DNA of 64,000 bases from Patescibacteria group bacterium. GTDB lineage: Bacteria > Patescibacteriota > JAHJAL01. A program made the position numbers and the translations under genes. This document shows, piece by piece, positions 882-61,825 of the stretch; position 1 is the stretch's first letter, and the number at the start of each line of letters is the position of its first letter. The notes beneath the pieces are model-generated. The model worked only from the letters and a program-made list of their open reading frames with translations, was not told where the DNA came from and made no database searches. Location of the stretch: positions 128,520-192,519 of the forward strand of contig JBMORM010000025.1 in the NCBI GenBank assembly GCA_049322675.1, given 5' to 3'.

Positions 882-1349
882 ATGATTAATTTCCAATTTC
901 TAAAAATTATTTCTTTGATTGTATTATTACCTCTGATTGTTGGGTGCAGTAATACAATAATTTATGAAGACAATAAAAAAATAACTTTAGTTGGCGATAA
1001 CCAAAGTTATTATTTCAATGTTGAAATTGCCGATGATCAGCATGAAAGATCAAACGGTTTGATGTTTCGAGAAAAATTATCAAAAGACGATGGGATGTTG
1101 TTTGTTTTTGAAACTGAAGATTATCAGTCATTTTGGATGAAAAATACTAAAATCCCTCTGGATTTGTTGTTTTTTGATCATCAGGGGAAGATGGTTGATT
1201 ACAAGGATGATTTTATGCCGTGTTTTGACGGAGAGGATTGTGATAATTACTTTTCAAAAGGAAGGGCTATATATGTGCTGGAGATTAATAGCGACGTTTT
1301 GGAAAAAGATGATTATTTTATGGACGTGCCAAAACTGATAAACACTTAA
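882..1349 (+). CDS. DUF192 (COG1430) family lipoprotein
   Basis: Signal peptide with lipobox LIVGC, followed by the DUF192-type core GLMFR...MLFVF...FWMKNTKIPLDLLFFD. Confidence 0.55.
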   Translation: MINFQFLKIISLIVLLPLIVGCSNTIIYEDNKKITLVGDNQSYYFNVEIADDQHERSNGLMFREKLSKDDGMLFVFETEDYQSFWMKNTKIPLDLLFFDHQGKMVDYKDDFMPCFDGEDCDNYFSKGRAIYVLEINSDVLEKDDYFMDVPKLINT

Positions 1350-1392
1350 AAACCCTTAGAAACTCTTGGAAACGCTTAAAAACGAAATTGGT

Positions 1393-2112
1393 TTATGGGT
1401 GTTTATGTTTTTTTGAAATTGTGATAATGTTGTGTCTTTCTGTATAGTTTTTTAATATTTTAAAGCCGGTAGAAGATAGCGTTTTGCCAATCTCTTCTTC
1501 GGTAAAACTGTGGTAATACCTTTGGGCTAATATTTCTTTGTTGCTGTTTTTCCAGGGGATTAGGCAGTCATTTTGGTCGAGGTCTGGTAAGATTTTTTTG
1601 CTAAAATTGCAGCATGATTGATATTTTGTTTGATCAAGTTGCCAGTTGGTGCAAATAAATAGTCCGCCTGGTTTGAGAAAGGAAAAAATGTTTTGAAGCA
1701 CTTTTTTTCTGAAAGATTCTGAAGGGATGTGATGGAGGCTGGCGATAGCAAAAATATAATCATATTTTTTTTCAGTTTTAAAATCCATTAGACTGTCGAC
1801 TTGAAATGATATTTTTTGCTTTGCTTTTCTGTGAGTTCTGGAATACTTTTTTGCTTCTTTGATGAGATATTTGGAAATATCCACTCCCGTATATTCGATT
1901 TGGTCGGGCAAAATTGATAATAAACGACCATTGCCGCATCCTAAATCAAGTATAGAACTATCGGATTTGACGTATTTGTCAGTAATTATTTTTATTTCCG
2001 TCCAGTTGTATTGTCTGGTTGATGAAAAATGCTCGCTTATCGAGTCGTAGGCTTTGGTTGTATCTGTTATAATTTGGGTAGCTATTTTTGGAAGCATGGG
2101 AAAAATTTCCAA
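1393..2112 (-). CDS. Class I SAM-dependent methyltransferase
   Basis: Motif I ILDLGCGNGRL and a post-I acidic residue (YTGVDIS); 239 aa. Confidence 0.7.
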   Translation of the reverse strand: MEIFPMLPKIATQIITDTTKAYDSISEHFSSTRQYNWTEIKIITDKYVKSDSSILDLGCGNGRLLSILPDQIEYTGVDISKYLIKEAKKYSRTHRKAKQKISFQVDSLMDFKTEKKYDYIFAIASLHHIPSESFRKKVLQNIFSFLKPGGLFICTNWQLDQTKYQSCCNFSKKILPDLDQNDCLIPWKNSNKEILAQRYYHSFTEEEIGKTLSSTGFKILKNYTERHNIITISKKHKHP

Positions 2113-2226
2113 TTTTCAATTCTCAATTTCCAATAAATTTCCAATGATCAATTTCCAAACGAATTAGTATATTGCTTTCAAAAAATATTTGGAAATTGGA
2201 AACTGGAAACTGGAAATTGTAAATTT
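2104..2226. repeat. Miniature inverted-repeat element, heptamer-repeat family (TTCCAAT / GGAAATTG units), in a divergent promoter region
   Basis: The left arm (2104-2160) is about 93% identical over 57 nt to 4757-4815. The right arm is GGAAATTGGAAACTGGAAACTGGAAATTG. Confidence 0.7.
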
Positions 2227-2234
2227 ATTTTATT

Positions 2235-3914
2235 ATGTCCTTATTTTCCCAAAAATTTGCGAATATTGCCAATGCGCGGCGGGAAGCTGTGTGGTTGATT
2301 ATTAATGAAAAAATTGATTCGGAAGAAAGGGTGATAAAAATTGTTCGTCAAATGTGTTCAAAATATCACGTTTCTTGTTTGGATTTGAAAAAATCCGGTT
2401 TGATAGAGGCATATCGAGAAATGTTGGCGAATACTGAAATTGAAGAAAATAAACAATTTGAACAATTGATGATAAAAAGAAAGGTGAGGACCCAGTCAGG
2501 AGTTAGCGTAATTTCAGTGATGACCAAGCCGCTGTCTTGTCCGGGAAAATGTATTTATTGCCCGACGCAGGACAATATGCCCAAGAGTTATTTGGATAAT
2601 CAACCGGCGGCGATGCGGGGGGTGATGTTTGATTTTGATCCATATGAACAAGTGCGAGCGAGATTGATGATGTTGGATCGAATGGGGCATGATATTTCCA
2701 AAAATGAAGTTATTATTTTGGGTGGGACTTTTTCGGCGCATCCGGCGAGATATCAGGAGCTTTTTATTAAGCGGATTTATGATGCGTTTAATAATTATTC
2801 TGGGGGAAAGGTTCTAGGTTCTAGGTTCAAGGTTTTAGAGGGGGAGAAAATTCAAAATTCAAAATATAAAACTCAAAATATTGCTGATGATCTTGAGGGC
2901 GCGAAGAGGATCAATGAGACGGCGGGGTGTCGGATGATTGGCTTGACGATTGAGACTAGGCCGGATTGGGTGACGCCAACCGAAGTCAAGAGATTGAGAT
3001 ATTTTGGAGTGACTAGGGTCGAATTGGGAGTGCAGAGTGTTTTTGATGATGTTTTGCAGGGTGTTAAGAGGGGACATGATGTCGCTGAGATCAAAAAAGC
3101 GACGAACCTTTTACGTCAGGCGGGTTTTAAAATCGTTTATCATATTATGCCTGGATTACCGGGAAGTAATGTTGCTCGGGATATAGAGATGTTCAAATTG
3201 TTATTTTCTGACCCGGGTTTTTTTCCGGATCATTTAAAAATTTATCCGACAGTAGTATTAAAAGATAGTCAGTTGTATAAAATTTGGCAAAAAGGTGGGT
3301 TTAAACCTTATAAAAATAAACAAGTGGTTGAAGTGTTGAAGACGGCCAAAAAAATCGTTCCCCCGTGGGTGCGGATAGTCAGGATTATGCGAGACATACC
3401 GCAAGAATCGATCGTGGATGGGGTAAAAGTGTCCAATTTGCGGCAACAGTTGGAAGAGGCAGGAGCGGTTTGCCAATGCATCAGGTGTCGTGAACCAAAG
3501 GGAAAATTTGTCAAAGAATTGAAAGTGGTTAAAAGAAGTTTCGAGGTTTTGGGAGGCCAGGAAGTTTTTTTGAGTTATGAATCTACTGACGAAAAGAATA
3601 TTTTGGCATTGGCACGTTTGTTTATTCCAGATAAGAAAACAAATTCGATAGTCAAAATCATTCGAGAGATAGAAGGTTGCGCTTTGATTCGAGAGTTGCA
3701 TACTTATGGAACGGTAATTGGTGTTGACCAAAAATCAGACAACAAGAGTCAGCATCGAGGTTTAGGCAAAAAATTAATGATCAGGGCGGAATCGGAAGCC
3801 AAAAAATATGGTTTCAAAAAAATGGCAGTGATTGCCGGAATTGGAGTCAGGGAGTATTATAATAAAATAGGTTATAAATTGGTAGGTGAATACATGGTTA
3901 AATATTTGGTATAA
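2235..3914 (+). CDS. elp3: Elp3-like radical SAM / GNAT acetyltransferase (tRNA U34 carboxymethyluridine synthase homolog)
   Basis: CPGKCIYCP radical-SAM cysteine triad in Elp3 spacing; C-terminal GNAT block HRGLGKKLM...KIGYKLVGEYMVK; 559 aa. Confidence 0.75.
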   Translation: MSLFSQKFANIANARREAVWLIINEKIDSEERVIKIVRQMCSKYHVSCLDLKKSGLIEAYREMLANTEIEENKQFEQLMIKRKVRTQSGVSVISVMTKPLSCPGKCIYCPTQDNMPKSYLDNQPAAMRGVMFDFDPYEQVRARLMMLDRMGHDISKNEVIILGGTFSAHPARYQELFIKRIYDAFNNYSGGKVLGSRFKVLEGEKIQNSKYKTQNIADDLEGAKRINETAGCRMIGLTIETRPDWVTPTEVKRLRYFGVTRVELGVQSVFDDVLQGVKRGHDVAEIKKATNLLRQAGFKIVYHIMPGLPGSNVARDIEMFKLLFSDPGFFPDHLKIYPTVVLKDSQLYKIWQKGGFKPYKNKQVVEVLKTAKKIVPPWVRIVRIMRDIPQESIVDGVKVSNLRQQLEEAGAVCQCIRCREPKGKFVKELKVVKRSFEVLGGQEVFLSYESTDEKNILALARLFIPDKKTNSIVKIIREIEGCALIRELHTYGTVIGVDQKSDNKSQHRGLGKKLMIRAESEAKKYGFKKMAVIAGIGVREYYNKIGYKLVGEYMVKYLV

Positions 3915-3921
3915 TATAGAG

Positions 3922-3993
3922 GAAATTTTCAATTTTCAATTTTTAATTTTCAAACGATATTGTTTAGAAATTAAAAATTAGAAATTAAAAATT
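3922..3993. repeat. Inverted-repeat element, same family (TTTTCAATTTT / AGAAATTAAAAATT units)
   Basis: Arms ggaaattttcaattttcaatttttaattttcaaac and gtttagaaattaaaaattagaaattaaaaatt. Confidence 0.65.
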
Positions 3994-4702
3994 GTTTATC
4001 ATGAATCAAAACAATGGCAATGATATTGAAATAAAAATTGGTGAGAATGATCAACATAAGGACGAGTTGGCCAATCGACTAAAACAGAGATTGGAAAAAG
4101 ACAAGAAGGATGAATTGGGAGATGTAGTATTTCATGCAACCGATCCTCGGTTAAAGTACAATGCCTGGTGGACAGTTTTGATGGTGACTTTGATCACGGT
4201 TGCTCTGGGTGTGATAGTTTTTTTGGTGGTCAAAGGAGCGCCGAATACTTCGGTTGTTAAGGAGCAAGAGAGGTTGGCTGGTTTCAATCAGGTAAAAGTA
4301 AAATATGATCAGGCCTTGGTGGCGGCTACCAATGAGTTGGTAAAGGCGGAAAATAGTTTTAATAACGGTAATTTTTCCGAGGCCAATGATACTTCCAAAA
4401 TAGCCGAAGACGATTTTAATCAGCTTATCGACTATGCTTATGAATTGGGTGGGGTTGATTTGGGAGATCAAAATCAAGCTTTCAAGAGTTATTTTGCCAA
4501 TTTGGAAGAAGCCGCCAAGTTAGGTGAAAAAATGTCTAAGTCTTTGGCGTACGCTTCGAGATCGGCTGATAGGGGACAAGAAGTCGAAGCAAAAAAATCT
4601 TTATCTGAATATGATGGATATGCGCAGGATTTGGAGTTGGTGATAAAAAAAGTACAGGCGTTTAAAAATAGCCAGGGAGAGTTTTTTAAGGCAAACACGT
4701 AA
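3992..4702 (+). CDS. Hypothetical single-pass membrane protein
   Basis: One TM helix (WWTVLMVTLITVALGVIVFLVV). The track start is TTG at 3992; ATG at 4001 is the likelier start. Confidence 0.4.
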   Translation: MFIMNQNNGNDIEIKIGENDQHKDELANRLKQRLEKDKKDELGDVVFHATDPRLKYNAWWTVLMVTLITVALGVIVFLVVKGAPNTSVVKEQERLAGFNQVKVKYDQALVAATNELVKAENSFNNGNFSEANDTSKIAEDDFNQLIDYAYELGGVDLGDQNQAFKSYFANLEEAAKLGEKMSKSLAYASRSADRGQEVEAKKSLSEYDGYAQDLELVIKKVQAFKNSQGEFFKANT

Positions 4703-4756
4703 TTTAATTTTTGAGTTTGTCTTTACATTTTTGTTTTATTTGATAGGCAAGAAAGG

Positions 4757-4900
4757 AATTTCCAATTCTCAATTCTCAATTTCCAATAAATTTCCAATGA
4801 ACAATTTTCAAACAAATATATTTTTTAGGCGATACTCATGTTTGTTTGGAAATTGGACATTGAGCCTTTTTTGGAAATTGAGAATTGAAAATTGGAAATT
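4757..4900. repeat. Miniature inverted-repeat element, heptamer-repeat family
   Basis: A 57-nt left arm nearly identical to 2104-2160; right arm GGAAATTGAGAATTGAAAATTGGAAATT. It contains the TTG that the track uses as the RNase H start. Confidence 0.7.
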
Positions 4901-4909
4901 ATAAATTCT

Positions 4910-5338
4910 ATGAATGAAATCGTAATTTTTTCCGATGGTGGTTCTCGTGGTAATCCTGGTCCGGGGGCGGGGGCGGCGATGGTTTTTTTTGACAGTCAAA
5001 AGCAATGTTTGGGCAAGTCAAGATATTATGGTCATTGCACCAACAATCAGGCTGAATATCAAGCCTTGCTTGATGGGATAAAAGTGGTTGAGTCAAAAAT
5101 AAAAGATGAAGATCTGCATGAAGTTGATTTGAAGATTTTTCTGGATAGTGAACTGATGGTCAAACAAATCAACGGGGAGTATAAGGTCAAAAGCGAAGGT
5201 TTGGCGCCTTTTTACGAGCAGATTCAACAAAAACTTTCCAAATTTGGCAAAGCGACTGTGACTCATGTCATGCGCTCCAACAACAAATTAGCCGACATGA
5301 TGCTCAATGCGGTTTTGGATAGATGGGAAGGGAAGTAA
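4910..5338 (+). CDS. rnhA: Ribonuclease HI
   Basis: IFSDGGSRGNPGPGAGAAM and the ...NNQAEYQALL... RNase H fold signature. The track ORF begins at a TTG (4892) inside a repeat element; the in-frame ATG at 4910 is preceded by that repeat. Confidence 0.7.
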   Translation: MNEIVIFSDGGSRGNPGPGAGAAMVFFDSQKQCLGKSRYYGHCTNNQAEYQALLDGIKVVESKIKDEDLHEVDLKIFLDSELMVKQINGEYKVKSEGLAPFYEQIQQKLSKFGKATVTHVMRSNNKLADMMLNAVLDRWEGK

Positions 5339-5340
5339 TA

Positions 5341-5480
5341 TGAGAAAAATTTTCAATTTTCAATTTTCAGTTTTTCCCTCACGGGATCGAACTGCTGCTG
5401 ACAAACATATTTTGTATGCGATATTTGAAAATTGGAAATTGAAAATTTATTGGAAATTGAAAATTGGAAATTGAAAATTT
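5341..5480. repeat. Inverted-repeat element, heptamer-repeat family, with a GC-rich core
   Basis: Arms ttttcaattttcaattttcag and (gaaaattggaaattgaaaatt)x2 flank the core ccctcacgggatcgaactgctgctgac. Confidence 0.65.
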
Positions 5481-8472
5481 TGTAAACGAATATAACAGAT
5501 TGAATCCTCGCCAAAAAGAGGCTGTTGATACTATTTATGGCCCCGTGATGGTAATTGCCGGTCCGGGGACGGGGAAGACGCAGACTTTGACGGTGAGGAT
5601 TGCCAATATTTTACAAAAGACGGATAGTATGCCGTCTAGTATTTTGTGCCTGACTTTTACCAATTCAGGTGTTAAGGCAATGCGGGAACGTTTGGTAAAA
5701 ATAATTGGTCCTGACGCCTATCGGATCGATATTCACACCTTCCATTCTTTTTGCAACGAGGTGATAACTTTTCATCCCGAGCGTTTTTTGTTTGCCAAAA
5801 AAATGCAGCAGATCACTGATTTGGAACAGATTCAATACGTGATGAAAATATTGAATGAAGGTGATTTTAAGTTATTGCGGCCACCCAAGGCGGCGGATTT
5901 TTATCTCAAAAGTATTATCAAGGCGATTGGTGATTTAAAGATGGAAGGTTTGACTCCTGAAGAGTATGAAAAAATTGTCCGGCAAAGACATCAAGAATAT
6001 GAAATATTTCTAGCGGAAAGAGAAAAGAAGCCGACGCAAAAAGATTTGTCGGAAAAAACTTCGATTGAAAGAAATCTGGAATTGTCAGATTTGTATCGCA
6101 AATATCAAGAGTTGATGCGGGAAAATGGTCGTTATGATTACAATGACATGATCTTGTTTGTTTTAAATGAGTTTAAAAAAGATATAAATTTTCTGGCGGG
6201 GTATCAGGAGAAATATTTATTTATTTTGGTGGACGAATATCAGGATACCAATGGGGCACAAAACGAGTTGATCAAATTGATGGGCGCCAAGGTGGATCAA
6301 CCGAATATTATGGTGGTGGGGGATGACGAGCAGTCGATTTACCGTTTCCAAGGCGCCAGTTTGGAAAACCTGTTATTTTTTACCGATTTGTTTCCCAAAA
6401 CAAAAAAAATTGTTTTGAATATAAATTATCGCAGTCCAAAAAATCTGGTGGCGGCTGCCAGATCGATGATTGTTCAAGCCGGGGTTAATGCTCAGCAAGT
6501 TTTGGCGATAGATAAAGAGATTGAGGCGGCAAACCAGAATGATGTGCCCGGGGCGTGGTTAGTAAAACTTGAGAGCGATGATTTGGAACAAAGTTGGATT
6601 ATGGAAAAAATAAAAAAATTATCGCAGAGCGGAGTAGATCTGTCGGATATTGCTTTGATTTTTCGAACCAATGACGAGATGGAAGATTATAAAAAGCTAT
6701 TTTTGGCAGCCGGCATTGACTGGCGATTTTTGACCGGAGCCAATATTTTGCAGGAGAAGATCATATCGCAGTTGGTTGATTTGATACGAGTGATTATCAA
6801 TCCTTTCAACGACGAGTTGTTGTTTAAGGTAATGTATTTTTCCTGGCTCAAAATAGATGAAGTGGATCATTATCGTTTATTAAGTTTTGGTCGCCGAAAA
6901 ATATTTGCTTGGCTAGTGGAAAACAAAGATGCTGATTTGACTGACAAGTTTAAAGATTGGCCTGGATTGGTAAAATTTGCCAATTTTGTTTTAATAATCA
7001 GAAAAGAAAATGCCAATCGGACTTTACCGGATGTTTTGGAAAAATTGATCAAACAAAGTGGTTTATTGAAATGGGTAGTGGAAGACAAAAAGAGAGTAGG
7101 GGATTTGCCAAAGTTAAAGAGCTTTTTCAAATTTGCCAAGTCGGCGGCCGCCAATCGGGTTGAATATGATTTAAGTGAGTTTATAAATACTTTGGCGGAC
7201 ATGAAAGATCATGATTTGCCGATTCGTTTCAACGAGATGGATTTTTCCAAGTCGGCAGTGGTTCTGACGACGGCTCATGGTAGCAAGGGCTTGGAGTTTG
7301 ATTATGTCTTTATTGTCAAAGCGGTGGACAAACATTGGAGCAACAAGACTGCGCGGGAATTAATAAAAATAGTGCCGGGAGTGATCAAAAAACAACCCGA
7401 AAAGACAGAAGCGGTGGATGAAGAAAGAAGACTATTTTACGTGGCTATGACGCGAGCCAAAAAAGAATTGTATATTACCTGGGCGAAAAAATATGGTCTG
7501 GGCAAAGATGAAAAAGAGACGATCGAATCAATGTTTGTGGCCGAAATAGATCAAAATTTTTCTCAGTCTGTCGATAGTGGATTGTCGGAGCAAAAAAATA
7601 AAGAATTGATTGCCGATTATTTTGACAAAAAGCCAGAGGCGGTTTTTTCAGTTGAATTGACTGATTATTTGCGACATTTGGTTGATGAATTTGTCCTCAG
7701 TCCTACTGCTTTGAATAAATATCTGGATTGTCCCAGAAAGTTTTTATACGAAAGTTTATTGCGGGTGCCGATGGCCAAGAAACTACCCTTGCAATACGGA
7801 TCGGCGATACATTACGCGTTGGAAATGTTTTACAGCGAGTATAAAAAGACTAAACAATTACCGGAAAAAGAGGTTTTGTTGCAATATTTTGAGGCGGGTT
7901 TAAATAAAGAAGTCTTAGCTGAGCATGACCTGAAACATCTTCGACAAAATGGCCGGGAAAATCTGGCAAAGTATTATGATTTTTATTGTGATAAATTCAA
8001 GATTCCGATTTACAATGAGTTCAATTTTGGCAGCAAAAAGATATTATTGGATCAGCAAATCCCGATCACGGGCAAGGTTGATCGGGTAGAGTTATTGGAG
8101 GATAGTGATGGTGAGACCGTGAGAGTGATTGATTATAAAACCGGACAACCCAAGAGTCGCAATGATATTTTGGGTAAAACCAAGACTTCGACTGGCGATT
8201 ATCACCGGCAGCTGATATTTTACAAGTTACTCGGGAGACTATCTTCCAGCTTTATTTACAAAATCAAAGAAGTGGAATTAGATTTTGTCGAACCCAAAAA
8301 AGGTTCGGGAAAATTTGTTCGAGAATCTTTTATGATCGAATTGGAACAGTTGAATCAATTAAAAAAAATGATTCGAGAAGTCTGGGTCAAAATTCAAGCT
8401 TTGCAATTTCCCTGCCTGCCTGAAAAAAATAAATGCAAAGATTGTGATTATCGCGATTTGTGTGATAAATAA
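5464..8472 (+). CDS. UvrD/PcrA-family helicase fused to a C-terminal PD-(D/E)xK (RecB/AddB/Cas4-like) nuclease with a 4-Cys cluster
   Basis: N-terminus LNPRQKEAV...VIAGPGTGKT (Walker A), DEYQDT (Walker B), helicase motif VI-like YVAMTRAKKELY. C-terminus YLDCPRKF ... CLPEKNKCKDCDYRDLC (four Cys, AddB/Cas4 type). The TTG start lies inside a repeat element. Confidence 0.7.
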   Translation: MEIENFVNEYNRLNPRQKEAVDTIYGPVMVIAGPGTGKTQTLTVRIANILQKTDSMPSSILCLTFTNSGVKAMRERLVKIIGPDAYRIDIHTFHSFCNEVITFHPERFLFAKKMQQITDLEQIQYVMKILNEGDFKLLRPPKAADFYLKSIIKAIGDLKMEGLTPEEYEKIVRQRHQEYEIFLAEREKKPTQKDLSEKTSIERNLELSDLYRKYQELMRENGRYDYNDMILFVLNEFKKDINFLAGYQEKYLFILVDEYQDTNGAQNELIKLMGAKVDQPNIMVVGDDEQSIYRFQGASLENLLFFTDLFPKTKKIVLNINYRSPKNLVAAARSMIVQAGVNAQQVLAIDKEIEAANQNDVPGAWLVKLESDDLEQSWIMEKIKKLSQSGVDLSDIALIFRTNDEMEDYKKLFLAAGIDWRFLTGANILQEKIISQLVDLIRVIINPFNDELLFKVMYFSWLKIDEVDHYRLLSFGRRKIFAWLVENKDADLTDKFKDWPGLVKFANFVLIIRKENANRTLPDVLEKLIKQSGLLKWVVEDKKRVGDLPKLKSFFKFAKSAAANRVEYDLSEFINTLADMKDHDLPIRFNEMDFSKSAVVLTTAHGSKGLEFDYVFIVKAVDKHWSNKTARELIKIVPGVIKKQPEKTEAVDEERRLFYVAMTRAKKELYITWAKKYGLGKDEKETIESMFVAEIDQNFSQSVDSGLSEQKNKELIADYFDKKPEAVFSVELTDYLRHLVDEFVLSPTALNKYLDCPRKFLYESLLRVPMAKKLPLQYGSAIHYALEMFYSEYKKTKQLPEKEVLLQYFEAGLNKEVLAEHDLKHLRQNGRENLAKYYDFYCDKFKIPIYNEFNFGSKKILLDQQIPITGKVDRVELLEDSDGETVRVIDYKTGQPKSRNDILGKTKTSTGDYHRQLIFYKLLGRLSSSFIYKIKEVELDFVEPKKGSGKFVRESFMIELEQLNQLKKMIREVWVKIQALQFPCLPEKNKCKDCDYRDLCDK

Positions 8473-8482
8473 TTGTCAATCG

Positions 8483-8543
8483 TAGGGGCGACCCTCGCGG
8501 TCGCCCGGTTTTCAATGTAGGGGCGAGGTTTCCCCGCCCCTAC
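8483..8543. repeat. Two adjacent GC-rich hairpin palindromes sharing a GTAGGGGCG arm
   Basis: GGGCGACC-ctcgc-GGTCGCCC, then GTAGGGGCG-aggtttccc-CGCCCCTAC. These are about 80% GC in a ~35% GC genome, immediately after the helicase-nuclease stop. Confidence 0.6.
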
Positions 8544-11376: not shown

Positions 11377-12225
11377 GTGAGAAAAAAGATTGTTTTTCTG
11401 GTTGCTTTTTTTGTTCTGTTCACGTTTTCGGTTTCCATGGCTAATCCATTAGCATGGATTTCTTTGGTTTTTGGAGTATTTCAGTGTTTGCGACCTTCAG
11501 AGAAGGTGAATACGCAAAATGTGGCAATTTTTTCCGTGAGCTTTTACTCCAAAAAATTGGGTCAATCAAATATCATGAATGTTGCTGATAAGGAAATATC
11601 GGCATGGATAAATTCTGAGGCGTTAAAAGAATATCCTGACATGGAAATGATCGTTTCAGGAGATATGTCAATGATATTTGATGCTGATGCGCCTACTGAA
11701 CGTTTCCAAGTAGCAATAAATGGCTCAAGTGCAAATCCAATGTTGTGTAAAGATATTGATACTGAGTCTTTATCGGGTTGGACTGTAAAGTTTAACTTAC
11801 TGGATGTATTACGGACTGTATCTGCTGACCATCAAAGATCATGTGTGGTAAGGGTTATGATTATTTCAAAAGAAGACGCAGTTGCCCGCGGCTTCTTTTA
11901 CCTAAATTTTGAAGGCAATGACTTTATAGGGTCGCAAGGGTATGAAGCGCAGAAAAAAATATATGGCGATCCTGTTGCCATATACGGTGAACAAAAGTCG
12001 AATGTAGTTCAACTATTTTCGAATGAAAATTGTTATTTTCGTATAATCACCTCTAAGGGAGAAAAGTTGCTAGGAGAGTGTAACAAAATTTATGTTCTTG
12101 ATTATTCGAAAATCGGAACAACTTTTGTTATACAAAAGGTACAGGTTCAGAATGGTTTAGTACTTCCCATTGGAAGTGAAATAAAATTTGACGGAAGCCA
12201 GAAGGAGGTGAACTTGGATGAATAA
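11377..12225 (+). CDS. Secreted hypothetical protein (signal peptide)
   Basis: GTG start with upstream AAAGGA; N-terminus MRKKIVFLVAFFVLFTFSVSMA. Its end overlaps the next gene by 8 nt, which suggests an operon. Confidence 0.45.
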   Translation: MRKKIVFLVAFFVLFTFSVSMANPLAWISLVFGVFQCLRPSEKVNTQNVAIFSVSFYSKKLGQSNIMNVADKEISAWINSEALKEYPDMEMIVSGDMSMIFDADAPTERFQVAINGSSANPMLCKDIDTESLSGWTVKFNLLDVLRTVSADHQRSCVVRVMIISKEDAVARGFFYLNFEGNDFIGSQGYEAQKKIYGDPVAIYGEQKSNVVQLFSNENCYFRIITSKGEKLLGECNKIYVLDYSKIGTTFVIQKVQVQNGLVLPIGSEIKFDGSQKEVNLDE

Positions 12226-13192
12226 ATATTTTGTTTTCATCCTTGTTTTTTTATTAATTTTTAATTCAGTAAATTTTTCGGGGCAGGTTAAGGCACAGGC
12301 GGCTCAAAGCTGGAATCACATGGGAGGAAATCCCAACCAACTCTCTTTTTATGAGACGTTGGTTTTCATGGGATACTCCAAGTCCGAGGCCGGGCAACTG
12401 GCTGAGGATTTTAAAAGTGGAAAGTTCGAGGTGACTCTGAGAGAACATGGTATTATTTACAAAGTCATGACGTTTGGTTTCAAAGAAACAATGACCAACG
12501 TTATGACAAACTGGCAGGAGGGAAGTTCATATCCAGTGGCACACTGGAAAAATACCTCTAAAGGGCCGTTGGACTATTATGCTTGGTCGTGCAAAAATGT
12601 TGGTTGGCCAGAATTAACGGTTCCGACTCCGCCACCAACACCTCCGACAGTAGTCCCGACACCACCGCAGACACCTCCTCCAACACCTCCGACAGTAGTC
12701 CCGACACCACCGCAGACACCTCCTCCAACACCTCCGACAGTAGTCCCGACACCACCGCAGACACCTCCTCCAACACAGCCGCCCACGCCTCCTCCGACTC
12801 CGCCCCAGACACCCCCGCCAATTACTTTCAGTAAGGGGTCAATTCCGACTCCGGCAGCAGTTGTGATTGGGCGGCCGCCGTTTATTCCTCCGGTTGATAT
12901 ACCGGAACCGGAGGATAACGGGACGCCTTGTCCTACGGGGTCACCTACAGTGGTGCCGACGCAAAATTGTGATCCGGGGGGTACTCCAGCTCCCACCCCG
13001 CCGCTTCCAGCTCCTACCCATCTTCCCATTACTCCAGTCCCCGGGGCTCCTACGCCCCCACCTCTTCCTACTCTGATTCCGGTTGTGACTCCCGTGCCTA
13101 CTGGCGGCACGGTGGTCACAGTTCCGACTTATCAACCAGTATCTGGGGGAACCCCGGCCCCCACGCCTCCTTTACCCGGGGTAAAAAAATAA
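12218..13192 (+). CDS. Secreted Pro/Thr-rich repeat protein (extensin-like linker)
   Basis: Perfect SD GAAGGAGGTG before ATG 12218; signal peptide; (PPTVVPTPPQTPPPT)x3 encoded by a perfect 45-bp tandem repeat. Confidence 0.55.
   Translation: MNKYFVFILVFLLIFNSVNFSGQVKAQAAQSWNHMGGNPNQLSFYETLVFMGYSKSEAGQLAEDFKSGKFEVTLREHGIIYKVMTFGFKETMTNVMTNWQEGSSYPVAHWKNTSKGPLDYYAWSCKNVGWPELTVPTPPPTPPTVVPTPPQTPPPTPPTVVPTPPQTPPPTPPTVVPTPPQTPPPTQPPTPPPTPPQTPPPITFSKGSIPTPAAVVIGRPPFIPPVDIPEPEDNGTPCPTGSPTVVPTQNCDPGGTPAPTPPLPAPTHLPITPVPGAPTPPPLPTLIPVVTPVPTGGTVVTVPTYQPVSGGTPAPTPPLPGVKK
12641..12775 (+). repeat. Perfect 3 x 45-bp tandem repeat (cctccgacagtagtcccgacaccaccgcagacacctcctccaaca)
   Basis: Three identical copies with a partial fourth upstream, in frame inside the Pro-rich CDS. 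Confidence 0.85.
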
Positions 13193-14937: not shown

Positions 14938-15156
14938 ATGACTTATCGTTTTACAACTATTATTACCAAAGAAGGCAAATGGTATGTGGCGCGCTGTTTG
15001 GAGCTGGAAGTGGTTAGTCAGGGGAAGACGGTGGAAGAGTCGCAGAAGAATCTGAAGGAAGCGGTGGAGCTGTTTTTGGAGGATCAACCGAATCCCCGGA
15101 AATTTGCTACAAAATCTTATCCAATTGTGACTACGTTGGAATTGAATCATGCCTAA
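14938..15156 (+). CDS. hicB: HicB-family antitoxin (UPF0150)
   Basis: YVARCLELEVVSQGKTVEESQKNLKEAVELFLE is the typical HicB N-terminal RNase H-like fold signature. The track start is TTG at 14917; ATG is at 14938. It overlaps hicA by 8 nt. Confidence 0.7.
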   Translation: MTYRFTTIITKEGKWYVARCLELEVVSQGKTVEESQKNLKEAVELFLEDQPNPRKFATKSYPIVTTLELNHA

Positions 15157-15373
15157 AACTATTTCGGGAAAAAAATTGGTGCGGATTTTATGTCGTTATT
15201 GGGGTTTTGTTTCGGTTTCGCAAAGAGGCAGTCATATAAAATTGAAGTTTTGCGATAAAAACAAAGATATTGTTGTGATTGTGCCTTTGCATTCGGAATT
15301 GGCGCGGGGAACTTTGAAGGGGATTTTAAAGCAGGCTCGGATTGGTGAAAAAGAGATTAGGGGGTATTTTTGA
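15149..15373 (+). CDS. hicA: HicA-family mRNA interferase toxin
   Basis: GKKLVRILCRYWGF...QRGSHIKL...LKGILKQA matches the HicA/YcfA dsRBD-like consensus (SGKELIKLLEKNGW..RQKGSHH...GTLRSILKQAGL). Confidence 0.75.
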   Translation: MPKTISGKKLVRILCRYWGFVSVSQRGSHIKLKFCDKNKDIVVIVPLHSELARGTLKGILKQARIGEKEIRGYF

Positions 15374-15401
15374 TTAAATCTTTTTTTTGTGATTGTACTG
15401 A

Positions 15402-15432
15402 AACGATTTTTGGATAAAATCGTCTTTTTTTT
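15402..15432 (+). terminator. Rho-independent terminator after hicA
   Basis: ACGATTTT-tggata-AAATCGT followed by CTTTTTTTT. Confidence 0.6.
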
Positions 15433-15500
15433 GTGTTGGGCTACCGTAATGGTCGCCCTTACTGATGGGGTGGATGCATGGTCATGTGTTGTTTTGTATC

Positions 15501-15528
15501 GTAGGGGCGGTTCATGAACCGCCCCTAC
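15501..15528. repeat. Perfect 28-nt GC-rich palindrome GTAGGGGCGGTTCATGAACCGCCCCTAC
   Basis: It shares the GTAGGGGCG/CGCCCCTAC arms with the elements at 8483-8543. Confidence 0.7.
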
Positions 15529-15607
15529 AAAAAATGATCATATAATCTTGATATTTTCTTAATTTTATTTTATAATATTAGGATATTTTTATTTTTAGTG
15601 AGTACAT

Positions 15608-21620: not shown

Positions 21621-21670
21621 TGAATTAACAATGAATAATTAACAATTAACTGTTAATTATTCATTGTTAA
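21611..21670. repeat. AT-rich palindrome (aacaatgaataattaacaattaac / gttaattattcattgtt) of the AATGAATAAT family
   Basis: Seen directly in the sequence, downstream of the surface-protein terminator. Confidence 0.55.
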
Positions 21671-21736
21671 TTATTAATTCCAACCTTGGGTTTGTGTTAT
21701 ACTTTATAAAGTAATATAAGTTTTATATTGAGAAAA

Positions 21737-22832
21737 ATGATTCATGAATTGGAAAAGCAAGTTGAGATATTGAAATCAGAAGTAAACAAAAATAAGGAGT
21801 ATCTTTGAGGGCACTGGCATATTAAAAAATATTGCTGATTTGGAAAGTAGGACGATGGTTGAGGATTTTTGGCTTGATAGGGACAAAGCGGAGTCTGTGT
21901 TGTCTAGTTTGTCGGCGGCAAAAAAAAAGTGGCAGGTGTGGCTGGATTTAAGTCGGGAGGTTTCAGATTTAGCTGAGTTGATATATATAACCAATGAGGA
22001 AGCTCAGCAAGATGAGCTAGAACAGTTGGTTGCTGATTATAATTTATTGGAGCATAGATTCAAAAGGGCGGAGATCGAGTTGCTATTGACTGGTTCTTAT
22101 GACCATTGTGATGCATTTTTGTCGATTCACTCGGGTACAGGAGGGGTGGATGCACAGGATTGGGCAGAAATGTTGCTGAGAATGTATTTGAGATACTGTG
22201 AAATAAGTAATTACAAGGCTGAAATTGTTAATATTTCTTCTGGAGAAGAGGCGGGGATAAAGAGCGCAATGGTCAAGATTGTTGGCGAAGATGCCTATGG
22301 CTACTTAAAAACTGAGCATGGTGTTCATCGTTTGGTTAGGCAGTCTCCGTTTAATGCCAAAGCTTTGCGTCAGACTTCTTTTGCCTTGGTTGAAGTGATG
22401 CCGATTTTTGATAAGACCATCAATCTGGAAATAAAAAAAGATGATTTGAGAATAGATACTTTTCGAGCTTCTGGTCATGGGGGGCAAAAGGTTAATAAAA
22501 CCGATTCGGCAGTTAGGATTACGCATTTACCTTCTGGTTTAGTAGTAGCTTGTCAGAGCGAGCGTTCTCAGATGCAAAACAAGGAAACAGCGATGAATAT
22601 TCTCAAAAGTAAATTGATTTTATTGCGAGAACAAGAAAATCGAGAGAAAGAAAAAAAGATCAAAGGGGAGGTAAAGCAGGGAAGTTGGGGTAATCAGATT
22701 AGGTCATACGTCTTGCATCCTTATCAGATGGTAAAAGATCATAGGACTGATTTTGAGACGAGTGATACTCATGGTGTTTTAAATGGCGAGATAGAAGAGT
22801 TTATCGAGGCGGCTTTGAGAAAAAGTTTCTAG
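21737..22832 (+). CDS. prfB: Peptide chain release factor 2 with programmed +1 ribosomal frameshift (CTT TGA G at 21803-21809)
   Basis: Frame 0 reads MIHELEKQVEILKSEVNKNKEYL then TGA. Internal SD AAGGAG plus TAT CTT TGA G matches the E. coli AGGGGG TAT CTT TGA C site. The +1 frame continues EGTGILK... through the SPF tripeptide and GGQ (RASGHGGQKVNKT). Confidence 0.8.
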
Positions 22833-22890
22833 TTTTTAATTTCTAAACAATGTATGTTTAAAAATTAAAAATTAAAAATTAAAAATTGTT
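22831..22890. repeat. Inverted-repeat element (AATTAAAAATT units) between prfB and ftsE
   Basis: aatttctaaaca-atgtat-gtttaaaaattaaaaattaaaaatt. Confidence 0.55.
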
Positions 22891-24496: not shown

Positions 24497-24590
24497 ATAA
24501 GTATTAAGTAACAAGTTTCAAGTGCCAAGTGACAAAAAATAAATAAATTATTTTTGGCTTGTAGCTTGTAACTTTTTTTGAAGGGTAATA

Positions 24591-25784: not shown

Positions 25785-25810
25785 TTCAAATTAACAATTA
25801 ATAATGAAAA

Positions 25811-26038
25811 ATGAATAATAATGTTGAAGAAAAATTTTTTCTAGGCAAAAATGAATTGTCTGAATTTATGCTTGAGGATAAAGTAAAAGCTGCTTTGTAT
25901 GCAGCTTTGGGAGACTATAATGGCGAAGATAAGCAGCGCATATTTGAAAGATCATGGGAGGAAATAATACATTACAAAAAGTCGATAATTGAAACATGTT
26001 TGAAAATTAAAGAAATTATAAAAAATGGTAAAAAATAG
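25811..26038 (+). CDS. Small hypothetical protein (75 aa)
   Basis: ORF only; it overlaps the start of the next gene. Confidence 0.25.
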   Translation: MNNNVEEKFFLGKNELSEFMLEDKVKAALYAALGDYNGEDKQRIFERSWEEIIHYKKSIIETCLKIKEIIKNGKK

Positions 26039-32509: not shown

Positions 32510-33643
32510 GTGAATAATATGAATAATCAAGTGAATAACTCTAATCAGCCTATTGGTCAGAGTGAGGGTAAGTTGTTGGACAGCATATATGCTTCTTGGC
32601 AGCAGGAGGAGTTGGATAATATTAATGTTACCAATATGATTGCCAAGGCTTTTGGTGGTTTGAAACGCAAACAGAGGCATGTTTTAAAGAGGAGATATGG
32701 AATTGGTGGTTTGGAAAAAAAGACTTTGCAAGAGATAGGTGATAGTTTTGGTGTTACTAGAGAAAGAATAAGACAGATAGAGAGATCAGCGTTAAAAAAA
32801 TTGAACAAAGAAGTAAATATTAAATATTTTCGTCCGGTTACGGCAGCAGTTGCTTTTGAATTGGAAAAATCTGGTGGAATTATATCAGAGCGAACATTAA
32901 TAAGACGCATTTTAGGTAATAATTATTCAGAGGAAAATAATAGTGGTATGAAATTGATTTTGGAGGTTTTTCCTGATTTTTATTATGCTAAAGAGTGTGA
33001 TCATAAAAATGAAGCCTGGCATCTAAGAGAATGTGATCTAGAAAGAGTCGTAAAGGTGATAAAAAGTTCGATTGAGTATTTGGAAAATAGAGGGGAAATA
33101 GTGTCTATTGATGAATTAAAAAGTGATATTGCTAGTAAACATGAATTGACTGAAGATCATTTGGTGTCGCTTATGGATTTGTCGAAGATGATTATGCAAA
33201 CATCTGATGGTGGTTTTGGTCTTAAATCTTGGAAGTTTATAAATCCAAAGAATATTAGGGACAAGATATTTTTTGTTTTTCATAGAACAAAGAAACCTAT
33301 GCATTTTATGGAAATTACCGATTTAATAGTGAAAGAGGATTTTTTGCATAAGAAAAAAATAACTCACCAGGCGGTTCACAATGAGTTGATTGCTGATGAT
33401 AGATATGTTTTGATAGGCAAAGGAATATACGCTTTGAAAGAGTGGGGTTATCAACCTGGTACAGTAGTGGATGTTATCAAACAGATAATAAAGGAGGCAA
33501 AAAGACCTCTTTCAAAGGCTGAAATTATCGAAGAGGTCTTAAAACGTAGAATAGTGAAAAAAAATACTATTGTCATTAATTTGCATAATAAAAAATATTT
33601 TGACAGAACTACTGATGATAACTTTGTTTTGAAAAATCAATAA
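32510..33643 (+). CDS. Sigma-70 region-4 HTH domain fused to a HARE-HTH (RNAP delta-like) domain; putative transcription/DNA-binding factor
   Basis: N-terminal block LKRRYGIGGLEKKTLQEIGDSFGVTRERIRQIERSALKKL (sigma region 4.2). C-terminal KPMHFMEITDLI...RYVLIGKGIYALKEW matches the HARE-HTH signature (GKGxYxLKEW). GTG start at 32510 or ATG at 32519. Confidence 0.5.
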   Translation: MNNMNNQVNNSNQPIGQSEGKLLDSIYASWQQEELDNINVTNMIAKAFGGLKRKQRHVLKRRYGIGGLEKKTLQEIGDSFGVTRERIRQIERSALKKLNKEVNIKYFRPVTAAVAFELEKSGGIISERTLIRRILGNNYSEENNSGMKLILEVFPDFYYAKECDHKNEAWHLRECDLERVVKVIKSSIEYLENRGEIVSIDELKSDIASKHELTEDHLVSLMDLSKMIMQTSDGGFGLKSWKFINPKNIRDKIFFVFHRTKKPMHFMEITDLIVKEDFLHKKKITHQAVHNELIADDRYVLIGKGIYALKEWGYQPGTVVDVIKQIIKEAKRPLSKAEIIEEVLKRRIVKKNTIVINLHNKKYFDRTTDDNFVLKNQ

Positions 33644-36379: not shown

Positions 36380-36430
36380 ATTTTTTTGATTTTTAGTTTG
36401 GATTTTTCAAGAGTGGGGTCAAATGTTATA

Positions 36431-36462
36431 GTCGTACAATGTATCTTGTGCGACTTTTATTG
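36431..36462 (+). terminator. Hairpin plus T-run after the ATPase gene
   Basis: GTCGTACAA-tgtatc-TTGTGCGAC followed by TTTTATTG. Confidence 0.5.
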
Positions 36463-36695
36463 TTGGTTTGGTCGACTTTGATCATATTTAATTTGTGGCA
36501 ATAATGTTGTAATGGTATTGATTTTTTAGATATTTTTTAGATTTAATCTTTCGTAGGTGAATATTCATATTTGTAAAATTAGCTATTTGGTCGCACAATA
36601 CTAAATAATTTTGTTTGTTAATAGAGAATATTATTGTCACTTATAAATAGTGGGTTTTCGCTCTTTTTCGGTGATTATTGAAATTGGGTCCTTCC

Positions 36696-46821: not shown

Positions 46822-46837
46822 GATAGTATTTTAATTT

Positions 46838-47428
46838 TTAATTTCTATTGTCCATAGCTTTGGTAAGAGTTATTTCGTCTGTGTATTCCAAGTCTACGCC
46901 CATGGGGATTCCAAAAGCCAGACGGCTGATTTTTATTGGGTATTGTTCGAGGATTTTGAAAATGTATGTAGCCGTGGCTTCTCCTTCCAAGGTGGGATTG
47001 GTGGCAATGATTACTTCTTTGATAATATCGTTTCCGGCTCTATTTTTTAATTTTTCCAAGGTTAGGTGTTCTGGTCCGATGCCGTCGATTGGCGATAGAG
47101 CTCCATGCAAAACGTGATATAAACCATTGTAATGTGTTTTTTCGATGGCAAGAATATCTAGTGGTTGTTCGATAACGCAAATGATTGATTGGTCACGTTT
47201 GTCGTTTTGACAAATATGGCAGGGATTTGTTTCGGAATAATTGAAACACAATTGGCAGAGTTGAAGATTTTTTTTAAGGTTTGTTAGCGCATTTCCAAAA
47301 TCGATAGTTTCTTGTTCTGGTTTGTGAAGAAGATAATAAGTTAGGCGGCTGGCGGTTTTTTGTCCAATTCCAGGCAATTTGGCAAAGTGATTGATAAGGT
47401 TGTTGATTGATTGAGGAATGTGGGACAT
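46838..47428 (-). CDS. recR: Recombination protein RecR
   Basis: HhH KLPGIGQKTASRL, C4 zinc finger CQLC...CHIC, and a Toprim domain. The true ATG is at ~47428; the track start is a TTG inside the repeat element. Confidence 0.85.
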   Translation of the reverse strand: MSHIPQSINNLINHFAKLPGIGQKTASRLTYYLLHKPEQETIDFGNALTNLKKNLQLCQLCFNYSETNPCHICQNDKRDQSIICVIEQPLDILAIEKTHYNGLYHVLHGALSPIDGIGPEHLTLEKLKNRAGNDIIKEVIIATNPTLEGEATATYIFKILEQYPIKISRLAFGIPMGVDLEYTDEITLTKAMDNRN

Positions 47429-47429
47429 A

Positions 47430-47500
47430 TTTTCAATTTCCAATTTTCAATTTCCAATTTTCAATTTCCAATTTTCAAATATATTTTGAAAAATAATTTG
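47430..47500. repeat. Heptamer tandem repeat (TTTTCAATTTCCAA x3.5) plus hairpin TTTTCAAATATATTTTGAAAA at the recR start
   Basis: Seen directly in the sequence; it supplies the spurious MEIEN N-terminus in the track. Confidence 0.65.
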
Positions 47501-55179: not shown

Positions 55180-55224
55180 ATTGTAATTAATAATTAATAA
55201 TGAAAAATGAATAATATAAAAGAA

Positions 55225-56202: not shown

Positions 56203-56223
56203 TTTCTTGAAAATTTAGTGAAA

Positions 56224-56289
56224 AATGAATAATGAATAGTGAAGAATGAATAATATTTTTGATTATTATTCACTATTCATTATTCATTT
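56224..56289. repeat. ~66-bp AT-rich palindrome of the AATGAATAAT family between the two transketolase subunit genes
   Basis: aatgaataatgaatagtgaagaatgaataata-ttttt-gattattattcactattcattattcatt; it overlaps the stop of the N-terminal subunit gene. Confidence 0.7.
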
Positions 56290-58853: not shown

Positions 58854-59241
58854 TTTTTATTTTTTTATTTATTTTATTTATTTATCTTAGTATTATATCA
58901 TTTATTTTATAAAATATCAATAAGTAAAACTTAAGTTATTTTTCTAGGTTCTCTTTTAGTTTATTTATTCTTGCTTCAAGAGATATTTTAACTCCGGTCT
59001 CTTTTTCGATTTGTTTTTGGATATTTTCGAAGAGTATTTTTTTTAACTCAAAAATAATTTTTTTTTCACTAGGCGGCCAAGTTGGTTTTTCTGGATTCAT
59101 AGTAGAAATATAATGATTATGAAATCGACCAGATTGTATCAGGGTTTATTTTTATAATCAATAATTTTTGCACAAGAATATAATCATATTGTTAATTATA
59201 ATATGATTATATTATTGACTAAAATAGTGTAATATTATTTA

Positions 59242-61747: not shown

Positions 61748-61751
61748 GGGA

Positions 61752-61825
61752 TAATTTTTAATTTTTAATTTCTAATTTTTAAACATATTTTGTTTAAAAA
61801 TTAGAAATTAAAAATTAGAAATTTT
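61752..61825. repeat. Inverted-repeat element (TTTTTAATTTCTAA / TTAGAAATTAAAAA units) between rmuC and truB
   Basis: taatttttaatttttaatttctaatttttaaac-atattttg-tttaaaaattagaaattaaaaattagaaatttt. Confidence 0.65.

Follow-up and report, generated by a model that had tools for sequence, protein, structure and literature searches.

Heptamer arrays at gene boundaries

The window analysed here comprised 64,000 nucleotides of a Patescibacteria group bacterium (contig JBMORM010000025.1, positions 128,520 to 192,519), a low-GC stretch (27-42%) densely filled with housekeeping genes. Short elements built from tandem 7-nt units (heptamers) occupied spacers between these genes. All seven copies listed in an initial annotation of the sequence were found where it had placed them, and Tandem Repeats Finder (TRF) returned period-7 arrays at each of these sites and at several further ones. 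The window held 20 period-7 segments against 0.56 expected from first-order Markov simulations of its base composition, an excess of ~35-fold; the other periods from 4 to 12 gave 0-6 segments each in the same scan. Intergenic DNA made up 8.4% of the window, and 16 of the 20 arrays lay mostly within it (binomial P = 2e-14). Summed from their coordinates, the elements accounted for about a fifth of the intergenic DNA (~1 kb of ~5.2 kb). The copies had been described as sitting at gene boundaries, mostly co-directional and once divergent, and this was indeed so: ten of the 11 two- or one-armed copies stood between co-directional genes, the exception being 2104, in a divergent spacer. The heptamer elements are a real, strongly non-random dispersed family at gene junctions and not a chance product of AT-richness, as the comparison with simulated sequence bears out.

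Further copies were added to the earlier list. These were three two-armed elements (21623-21679, 24500-24575 and 56217-56295), three one-armed arrays (25785-25815, 46829-46849 and 55181-55215), arrays inside a gene at 2807-2871, and a period-10 array at 1334-1384. The variability of the heptamer unit and the existence of period-9 and period-10 cousins also went beyond the earlier description, as did the precedent of inverted arrays already described in Xanthomonas and Nostoc (PMC4692102).

Anatomy of the elements

Most arrays formed inverted pairs that folded as hairpins of 20-45 bp. At least four unit flavours, besides the period-9 and period-10 cousins, occurred in the window and its relatives. 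Type I paired AATTTCC/AATTTTC with GGAAATT/GAAAATT (2104, 4757, 5341, 47429), and type II paired AATTTTT/AATTTCT with AAAAATT/AGAAATT (3922, 22833, 61750 and one arm at 46829). Type III used AATTAAC/AATGAAT/TGAATAA with the complements of these (21623 and 56217, plus single arms at 25785 and 55181), and type IV used AAGTNNC (24500). Arms typically had ~4 units, most TRF copy numbers being 3.9-5.3. The T-rich arm came first in types I and II, the A-rich arm in type III. The long form carried a composite arm of 57 nt, (AATTTYC)x4-AATA-AATTTCC-AATGAWC-AATTTYC-AAAC. The arm shared by 2104-2160 and 4757-4813, previously put at about 93% identity, matched at 54 of 57 positions (94.7%). A central YAAAC-loop-GTTTR, from which the heptamer arrays diverged, was common to types I and II and to the period-9 and period-10 families. 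The elements had been pictured as opposed arms around a unique core; the opposed arms held for most arrays, but the centre proved to be shared within types I and II.

Hairpin z-scores, computed against dinucleotide shuffles of single strands, were -3.5 to -12.7 for eight elements (2104, 3922, 4757, 5341, 21623, 22833, 56217 and 61750). The folding energy of 4757-4900 was -61.5 kcal/mol (z = -11.3) and that of 61750-61823 was -27.8 kcal/mol (z = -12.7). Element 24500 folded only weakly (z = -1.8). Element 47429 (z = -1.2), earlier counted among the two-armed copies, was essentially one-armed with a degenerate partner.

The type I long-form element at 2104-2226 (z = -3.5) made up the whole 137-bp divergent spacer between a methyltransferase gene and ELP3 (2235-3914), whose protein is 100% identical to one from a Patescibacteria group bacterium MAG. 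Its left arm (2104-2160), (AATTTYC)x4-AATA-AATTTCC-AATGATC-AATTTCC-AAAC, was followed by the core (2161-2188) and a shorter right arm of (GGAAAYT)x4 (2189-2226). Another long-form copy, at 4757-4900 between a hypothetical gene and the RNase H gene, had 57-nt arms around an 18-nt loop and ended 9 nt before the ATG. At 5341-5480 (type I, z = -5.2), between the genes for RNase H and a UvrD/PD-(D/E)XK helicase-nuclease, a left arm of 3.9 units was separated by a core with a GC-rich insert from a double right arm of 8.3 units. The type I array at 47429-47500 had 7.1 units (the 14-mer ATTTTCAATTTCCA repeated 3.6 times) and abutted the start codon of the minus-strand RecR gene. Two type II elements were of the short form. 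The one at 3922-3993 (z = -4.0), between ELP3 and the hypothetical gene, read (AATTTTY)x4-AAAC-GATATT-GTTT-(ARAAATT)x4 and ended 7 nt before the ATG, and the one at 61750-61823, between truB and rmuC on the minus strand, formed an almost perfect 32-bp stem. A further type II element at 22833-22890 (z = -3.5), between prfB and ftsE, had a short left arm running into the prfB stop codon and a right arm of (AAAAATT)x4.3.

The type III palindrome at 21623-21679, AATTAAC/AATGAAT opposite ATTCATT/GTTAATT, had 22 perfect pairs (z = -10.2); a canonical intrinsic terminator preceded it and the conserved extended -10 (TGTTATACT) of prfB followed. The type III element at 56217-56295 (TGAATAA opposite TTATTCA, z = -8.4) lay between the N- and C-terminal genes of a split transketolase (55225-57094), with one arm overlapping the 3' end of the upstream half. 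The type IV element at 24500-24575, between ftsX and an M23 peptidase gene, was the sole one followed by a T-run and was kept in the relatives L174 and L180.

Among the one-armed arrays, a type III array on the plus strand (25785-25815, without a fold) ran into the start of a conserved 75-aa open reading frame (ORF; 25811-26038). This ORF, which has its own start inside the array and overlaps the start of a U32 peptidase gene, was kept in L174-L178 and L180, with a 69-aa counterpart in L181, and had no recorded Pfam match in the relatives. On the minus strand, a type II array (AGAAATT AAAAATT ..., 46829-46849) closely preceded the start codon of the cysteinyl-tRNA synthetase gene and overlapped the recR end, and a type III array (55181-55215) was directly upstream of the start codon of a pfkB-family kinase gene. 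Within ELP3, (AGGTTCT)x4 and (AAAATTC)x4 arrays lay at 2807-2871 (plus strand); a hidden G.U-paired hairpin was excluded there, as they had no fold (z = +1.5). The period-10 array at 1334-1384 (plus strand), (AAACNCTTNN)x4.5, was at the 3' end of a DUF192 gene.

Effect on gene starts

In types I and II, the gene-proximal arm, taken in the direction of the gene that follows, was (RRAAATT)n and ended 0-20 nt before the start codon of that gene. Where the arms were unequal, the gene-proximal one was longer (5341, 22833, 47429, 46829). Because the arrays supply in-frame TTG GAA ATT codons, they give rise to spurious (M)EIEN-type N-termini. The initial annotation had called such starts artefactual, and we found them as (M)EIEN in the helicase-nuclease and RecR, (M)EIINS in RNase H and (M)EIFP in the methyltransferase. 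The helicase more likely starts at the TTG at 5500, since 'ttgaat' is likewise found at the called start in L003, a relative. The FtsE of 242 aa in a relative's public record showed the same array-derived start artefact. The Shine-Dalgarno (SD) sequence was absent from most window genes, with or without an element, and for this reason we rejected the element as a specific replacement for a missing SD.

Conservation and turnover in relatives

Gene order around ELP3 and around prfB-ftsEX was preserved in relatives. ELP3 shared 89% amino-acid identity with the window in L001 and L174-L178, 75% in L002, L126 and L181, and 64% in L003; the hypothetical protein shared 81% in L125, and FtsE 96% in L180. 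At the nucleotide level, L174 was 91% identical to the window over the 10-kb prfB-ftsEX region, 78% to L180, and 74% to L002, L126 and L181.

Certain copies remain nearly invariant as silent sites become saturated. The element between ELP3 and the hypothetical gene was 95% (L001) and 90% (L002) identical to that of the window, compared with 62% at adjacent third codon positions, and its right arm was identical at 31 of 31 positions in the three genomes. The whole 213-nt spacer between the hypothetical and RNase H genes, which takes in the long-form element with its loop as well as a 54-nt leader, was 93% identical in L125; for the gene beside it, identity was 79% over all positions, 57% over third codon positions and 48% over four-fold sites. 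Six sister-species contigs from strains 99-100% identical had zero indels in the arrays, and unit numbers differed between species-level relatives. Exact-protein look-ups with the window RNase H and hypothetical protein, made as a strain-level check of repeat number, gave no match.

Other copies are gained, copied to other junctions or swapped for sister families on the timescale of genus divergence. The ftsE/ftsX spacer was 15-21 nt in the window, L174 and L181, and 67 nt in L180, where it contained a type II element whose right arm was identical to window 3962-3993 (32 of 32 positions). Between the filled and empty sites, the whole spacer was exchanged. The window, L001 and L002 have a type II element at the junction between ELP3 and the hypothetical gene, but L125 had a type I element there, with the odd unit CAGTTTC and the 25-nt core (AAACATATTTTGTATGCGATATTTG) of the window element between RNase H and the helicase. 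Period-10 inverted arrays (AAACNCTTNN) replaced heptamers at the methyltransferase/ELP3 junction of L001 (4944-5044) and the RNase H/helicase junction of L002 (6601-6685). At prfB/ftsE, L174-L180 had period-9 inverted arrays (CAAACNTAT; L174 4959-5037, L180 4708-4785), and the window and the L181 ortholog had heptamers. Both sister families kept the central AAAC...GTTT. The divergent methyltransferase/ELP3 spacer was only 30 bp in L002. The earlier proposal of a mobile or recently homogenised element is thus upheld by the gain in L180, the relocation with its core in L125 and the replacement of families at shared junctions.

Coding sequence was also affected. In the window and L001, heptamer arrays encoded a lineage-specific ~24-aa insertion in a variable loop of ELP3. 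L003 had VGAGLKPART at the same place, which appears to be an in-frame translation of a GC-rich hairpin of the GTAGGGGCGGG type. A GC-rich REP-like hairpin (2858-2923) also filled the ELP3/hypothetical gene spacer of L003, and period-7 and period-10 arrays were absent from the 12.8 kb of this relative that were examined.

Distribution beyond the window

A scan for (RRAAATT)x4 in one genome per species gave at least 120 loci. Among the 120 matches listed, 52 were Patescibacteria of many classes (Saccharibacteria, Moran-, Zambryskii-, Nealson-, Levy-, Shapiro-, Woese-, Doudna- and Yanofskybacteria, Paceibacteria, Absconditabacterales and Peribacteria); the remainder were mainly Bacteroidota and cyanobacteria, with a few high-GC metagenome-assembled genomes (MAGs). 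Since Patescibacteria, or the candidate phyla radiation (CPR), make up a small share of species and bases, 52 of the 120 listed is a large enrichment. The T-rich-first hairpin form, seen at 18 loci among the matches listed, was confined there to Patescibacteria or unlabelled low-GC MAGs. The initial annotation had proposed a search for the 57-nt arm outside the window; modules of this composite arm recurred in Moranbacteria, Saccharibacteria and other Patescibacteria MAGs, that is, in several CPR classes. The AATA and AATGAWY interruptions were the same in Saccharibacteria, Moranbacteria and other classes. Our search of the literature accessible to us returned no account of such repeats in CPR/Patescibacteria.

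Carriage by phages was considered and rejected, as a scan of IMG/VR for the inner module gave mostly chance matches in coding DNA and one CPR-like hairpin (L134). An unrelated virus group in IMG/VR (contigs L127, L128, L132, L135, L137, L141, L144, L158, L161 and L165, ~47% GC) had very long mixed arrays of AATTTTC/AATGATC/AATGGTC followed by AATCATT/GTTCATT/ATTCATT. We also observed AT-rich inverted heptamer arrays closely upstream of genes in high-GC MAGs (56-68% GC; Acidobacteriota, Planctomycetota, Verrucomicrobiota), at L007 7130-7276, L091 493-581 and 1925-2010, L081 1006-3448 and L025 5915-6023. Their arm order was opposite (A-rich first) and their cores were GC-rich. In L007, L091 (493-581) and L025, an ATG stood 1-13 nt past the T-rich arm and opened an N-terminus that looked hydrophobic and signal-peptide-like by eye.

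Relation to known repeats

As reported by Rehm et al. (2015, PMC4692102), Xanthomonas (GGGAATC) and Nostoc (GGGGAYT) carry intergenic heptanucleotide simple sequence repeat (SSR) arrays, with 70-75 convergent inverted pairs per Xanthomonas genome. The window elements have the attributes of heptanucleotide SSRs or short tandemly repeated repetitive sequences (STRRs), namely tandem 7-nt units, a non-coding bias, inverted pairing (~10 two-armed copies) and a four-unit mode. They resemble the Xanthomonas and Nostoc arrays in the unit length, the strong intergenic bias, the preference for four units and the opposed pairs able to form stem-loops, and in standing beside housekeeping genes of all classes, mostly at the same junctions in related species with differences in sequence and length; no function has been established for those arrays (PMC4692102). 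The units themselves are alike (GGGAATC and GGGGATT there, GGAAATT here). The CPR units differ in being AT-rich and without G-quadruplex capacity, so G-quadruplex formation cannot explain the four-unit preference here. The host also differs, having a reduced Patescibacteria genome, as do the composite long form with its non-repeat modules, the YAAAC...GTTTR centre and the period-9 and period-10 sister families.

Two other heptamer systems bear comparison. In the 5'-UTR of hmw1A of Haemophilus influenzae, an (ATCTTTC)n hairpin is processed by RNase III (PMC12721329), the only such hairpin dissected experimentally at the RNA level. There, as here, a long hairpin with a heptamer array as one of its arms lies a short way upstream of a gene. 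The hmw1A partner arm is a non-repeat G-rich region, whereas both arms are arrays here, and any RNase III action on our elements is proposed by analogy; moreover, hmw1A encodes a phase-variable adhesin with fast changes in repeat number, whereas the window elements flank housekeeping genes and showed no repeat-number variation among close strains. The TAACTGA repeats of marine Beggiatoaceae (PMC4679880) are likewise intergenic tandem heptamers, most of them oriented the same way and stopping a few nucleotides short of start codons, and lineages with TAACTGA (cyanobacteria, Bacteroidetes) also appeared in our (RRAAATT)x4 scan. Unlike the window elements, they are nearly always direct repeats of a single unit sequence, with one inverted case out of 170.

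The elements can also be compared with dispersed palindromes. Repetitive extragenic palindromes (REPs) and bacterial interspersed mosaic elements (BIMEs), enterobacterial repetitive intergenic consensus (ERIC) sequences, Neisseria Correia elements and Rickettsia palindromic elements are small palindromic repeats that are co-transcribed and fold in mRNA, with presumed effects on how the mRNA is processed and how stable it is. Our elements are similarly dispersed, non-coding and palindromic, stand at gene boundaries and vary in presence between relatives; as in the Rickettsia family, they occasionally intrude into genes in frame. They are unlike all of these in their tandem-heptamer arms, the lack of a TA duplication and the lack of a terminal inverted repeat apart from the array. 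Membership of REP/BIME, defined by a 20-40 nt palindrome with a GTAG/CGTC head (PMC3733652), was rejected, as the elements are 57-144 nt long, AT-rich and untagged. No RAYT (Y1 transposase) gene lay within the 64-kb window.

MITEs (miniature inverted-repeat transposable elements) come closer, with inverted arms, a small non-coding body (57-144 nt), at least ten copies in 64 kb, and presence or absence at orthologous sites (ftsE/ftsX in L180, ELP3/hypothetical gene in L125). The MITE-like label of the initial annotation therefore stands as far as terminal inverted repeats, dispersed copies and presence/absence go, but falls short of strict membership in that no target-site duplication was seen, no transposase is present in the window and the cores vary. 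Integron attC sites (RYYYAAC ... GTTRRRY) were rejected, as the AAAC...GTTT is central and not terminal, the flanks are syntenic housekeeping genes and the window has no integrase. The family is an AT-rich CPR version of known intergenic heptamer SSRs; the composite architecture, the period-9 and period-10 sisters, and the combination of constraint and relocation set it apart.

Interpretation

The explanation we favour, to which we give about an even chance, is a duplicative MITE/REP-like family of heptamer-built intergenic palindromes that are transcribed as intercistronic or leader hairpins. The arrays would grow by replication slippage of 7-nt units, and arm symmetry would arise in the DNA itself, through inverted duplication or template switching together with ectopic conversion between copies. 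Alternatively, copying may depend on a trans-acting enzyme. As almost all copies lie in tightly packed co-directional gene strings, they should be co-transcribed with them, and action as intercistronic or leader hairpins is therefore most likely. The transcribed elements would form long AU-rich hairpins between cistrons, and in types I and II the gene-proximal arm would leave an A-rich, SD-free leader that stops 0-20 nt short of the following start codon. The outcome would most probably be post-transcriptional punctuation, that is, processing or stabilisation of the flanking mRNAs; by analogy with H. influenzae hmw, the 25-45 bp duplexes could be cleaved by RNase III.

Several observations weigh against this explanation. 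Pfam annotation of all window genes revealed no transposase, RAYT or obvious heptad-binding protein, and no target-site duplication was seen at element edges in the sequences read, where an AT-rich duplication of 2-4 nt could hide. Cores vary among copies with near-identical arms, and the one-armed arrays and the arrays inside ELP3 had no fold. The arm order of type III is opposite, so the idea of an A-rich leader is not general. At the ELP3/hypothetical gene junction, the left arm drifts and its mismatches persist uncompensated. If the stems were selected in the sense RNA, G.U-compatible mismatches should exceed A.C mismatches; in 31 elements with known gene direction, sense-strand G.U-type mismatches were not in excess (34 vs 38 A.C-type, P = 0.72). 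The outer arms of 26 CPR-type elements covaried no better with their own partner than with that of another element (4.54 vs 4.94 Watson-Crick pairs of 9, P = 0.94). With both tests negative, we rejected selection on the stem at the RNA level. In our reading, arm symmetry is made and refreshed at the DNA level, and sequence, not pairing alone, is constrained. We must also note that the strong sequence conservation could instead reflect a protein that reads the sequence.

Among the alternatives, the element could be primarily a selected structured RNA, in which the hairpin (an RNase III site, a 3'-end stabiliser or a 5' stem-loop) is the selected unit and the heptamers are a by-product of stem lengthening. 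The stems are very stable and lie between co-transcribed genes, the spacer between the hypothetical and RNase H genes is strongly conserved throughout, and H. influenzae hmw offers a precedent. In the three elements whose units are heterogeneous, complementarity was also specific to the register, at 96% in 4757 (76-86% when shifted by one unit), 100% in 21623 (73% shifted) and 93% in 56217 (76-86% shifted). Between the window and L125, the 4757 element showed one full compensatory change (T:A to C:G) and two wobble-to-Watson-Crick changes. Nevertheless, the wobble and covariation results and the uncompensated mismatches just given speak against it, as do the one-armed arrays and the occurrence of one element in a divergent spacer and of comparable elements in convergent spacers. 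Furthermore, no Rfam family matched the elements at gathering and E-value thresholds, which only a tRNA-Leu passed; the sub-threshold matches of the elements were plant miRNA hairpins scoring 22-24 bits against gathering thresholds of 90-102. We thus regard a primarily RNA-selected element as unlikely.

Somewhat less probable still is a protein-binding lattice on the DNA, with RRAAATT-type heptads flanking a palindromic core and serving as an operator, insulator or nucleoid-organising site. The omega repressor, a ribbon-helix-helix protein, recognises arrays of 7-bp heptads, both direct and inverted, and by analogy a similar protein might read the strict 7-bp register and the mode of ~4 units per arm seen here. 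Conservation at the level of sequence, with a right arm intact at 31 of 31 positions in three genomes while left arms drift uncompensated, the strand-symmetric mismatches and the lack of covariation are all compatible with such a reader, and the 21623 element stands directly before the -35 region of a promoter that is conserved. On the other hand, four or more heptamer flavours, together with families of period 9 and period 10, interchange at equivalent positions, which is hard to reconcile with a single sequence-specific reader. No candidate binding gene stood beside any element in the window, and the elements precede unrelated housekeeping genes.

A broader version of this idea, which we consider improbable, is an ancient CPR-wide cis-signal, in which outward RRAAATT heptad arrays nucleated at YAAAC-loop-GTTTR would be read by a conserved heptad-spaced reader, as general gene-boundary punctuation or as a translation-initiation leader in genomes poor in SD sequences and regulators. 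Candidate readers would be, on DNA, a protein of the ribbon-helix-helix type or, on RNA, one of the OB-fold Csp/S1 type. If true, it would explain the four-unit rule of Xanthomonas without G-quadruplexes.

A neutral by-product, in which slippage-prone AT-rich heptamers pile up under weak selection without mobility or function, is already disfavoured and in our judgement very improbable. Heptamer SSRs are the commonest class of long SSR in many bacteria, for which slippage has been proposed (PMC4679880, PMC4692102), and the many unit flavours and lineage-specific abundance would fit. Such a process does not agree, however, with conservation far above silent-site identity, the composite non-repetitive modules (AATA, AATGAWY, AAAC) common to several CPR classes, the relocation of an element together with its core, or the lack of length polymorphism among close strains.

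We see hardly more than a slight chance for promoter cassettes, with sigma-70-like promoters in the long-form cores and AT-rich arms acting as UP elements or leaders, an arrangement that would make insertions harmless to the downstream gene. Candidate promoters are TTTCCA-18-TATACT on the minus strand (2195-2166), toward the methyltransferase gene, and CTGACA-16-TGcGATATT on the plus strand (5398-5425), toward the helicase gene. L125 has an identical 25-nt core, with TGCGATATT in it, and as the divergent 137-bp spacer is entirely element, the promoters there must be inside it or in the flanking genes. Against this, promoter-like sites were not above shuffles (13 vs 10.5 +/- 3.2), short-form cores of 6-7 nt are too small for a promoter, the clear TTGACA-17-TAnnnT promoters of the window stand in element-free spacers, and the equivalent divergent spacer in L002 is just 30 bp.

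Intrinsic or bidirectional weak terminators, suggested in the initial annotation and here treated as a variant of the passive reading, are even less likely, as the elements have no GC stem and, apart from 24500-24575, no T-run, one is placed between the subunits of one enzyme (the split transketolase) and another between prfB and ftsE, a canonical terminator already stands before the 21623 element, and a consensus scan found no intrinsic terminator at the elements in 1900-5700. Canonical terminators and promoters were thus both rejected, consensus scans showing no enrichment at elements, and strong termination or promoter activity is unlikely.

Other features of the window

GC skew was strongly positive in all 2-kb bins of the window (1-64000; 0.03-0.49). 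The coding strand flipped from plus to minus near 36.5 kb while the skew stayed positive, which indicates that it tracks the replication strand and not gene orientation. The early region of prfB (21795-21809) contained the classical programmed +1 frameshift site of RF2 (AGGAG TAT CTT TGA G), and UGA is thus a stop codon in this organism. An ORF at 12218-13192 contained a perfect 45-nt tandem repeat (12635-12776; 3.2 copies, 100% identical) within a broader degenerate region of 12/24-nt repeats. The 377-aa protein encoded at 32510-33643 carried both a sigma-70 region 4 domain and, at its C-terminus, a HARE-HTH domain, which is an uncommon arrangement for a sigma-like factor.

Three long spacers (15151-15607, 36380-36695 and 58854-59241; 316-457 nt) had no heptamer arrays and no Rfam match, and they may hold unannotated small genes or RNAs. 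The first of them included a GC-rich REP-like hairpin. Hairpins of this kind, headed by the GTAG-tagged GTAGGGGCG, were located at 8482-8543 and 15501-15528, the only places with exact copies; allowing at most one mismatch, 14 matches were found against 3.4 expected.

Implications

The arrays corrupt start-codon calls, as in the MEIEN-type N-termini and the 242-aa FtsE, and can add repeats to coding sequence. Heptamer arrays should be masked when CPR MAGs are annotated.

Heptamer repeats in cyanobacteria (STRRs), Xanthomonas and Beggiatoaceae have had no accepted function over decades. In the window, an AT-rich version takes up ~1 kb of the 5.2 kb between genes, in a minimal CPR genome where idle DNA is hardly expected, and some copies are better conserved than the neighbouring proteins. 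Four-unit inverted pairs without G-quadruplex capacity remove the sole structural explanation offered for Xanthomonas. The recurrent architecture points to a common cause, either a slippage mechanism or a heptad reader.

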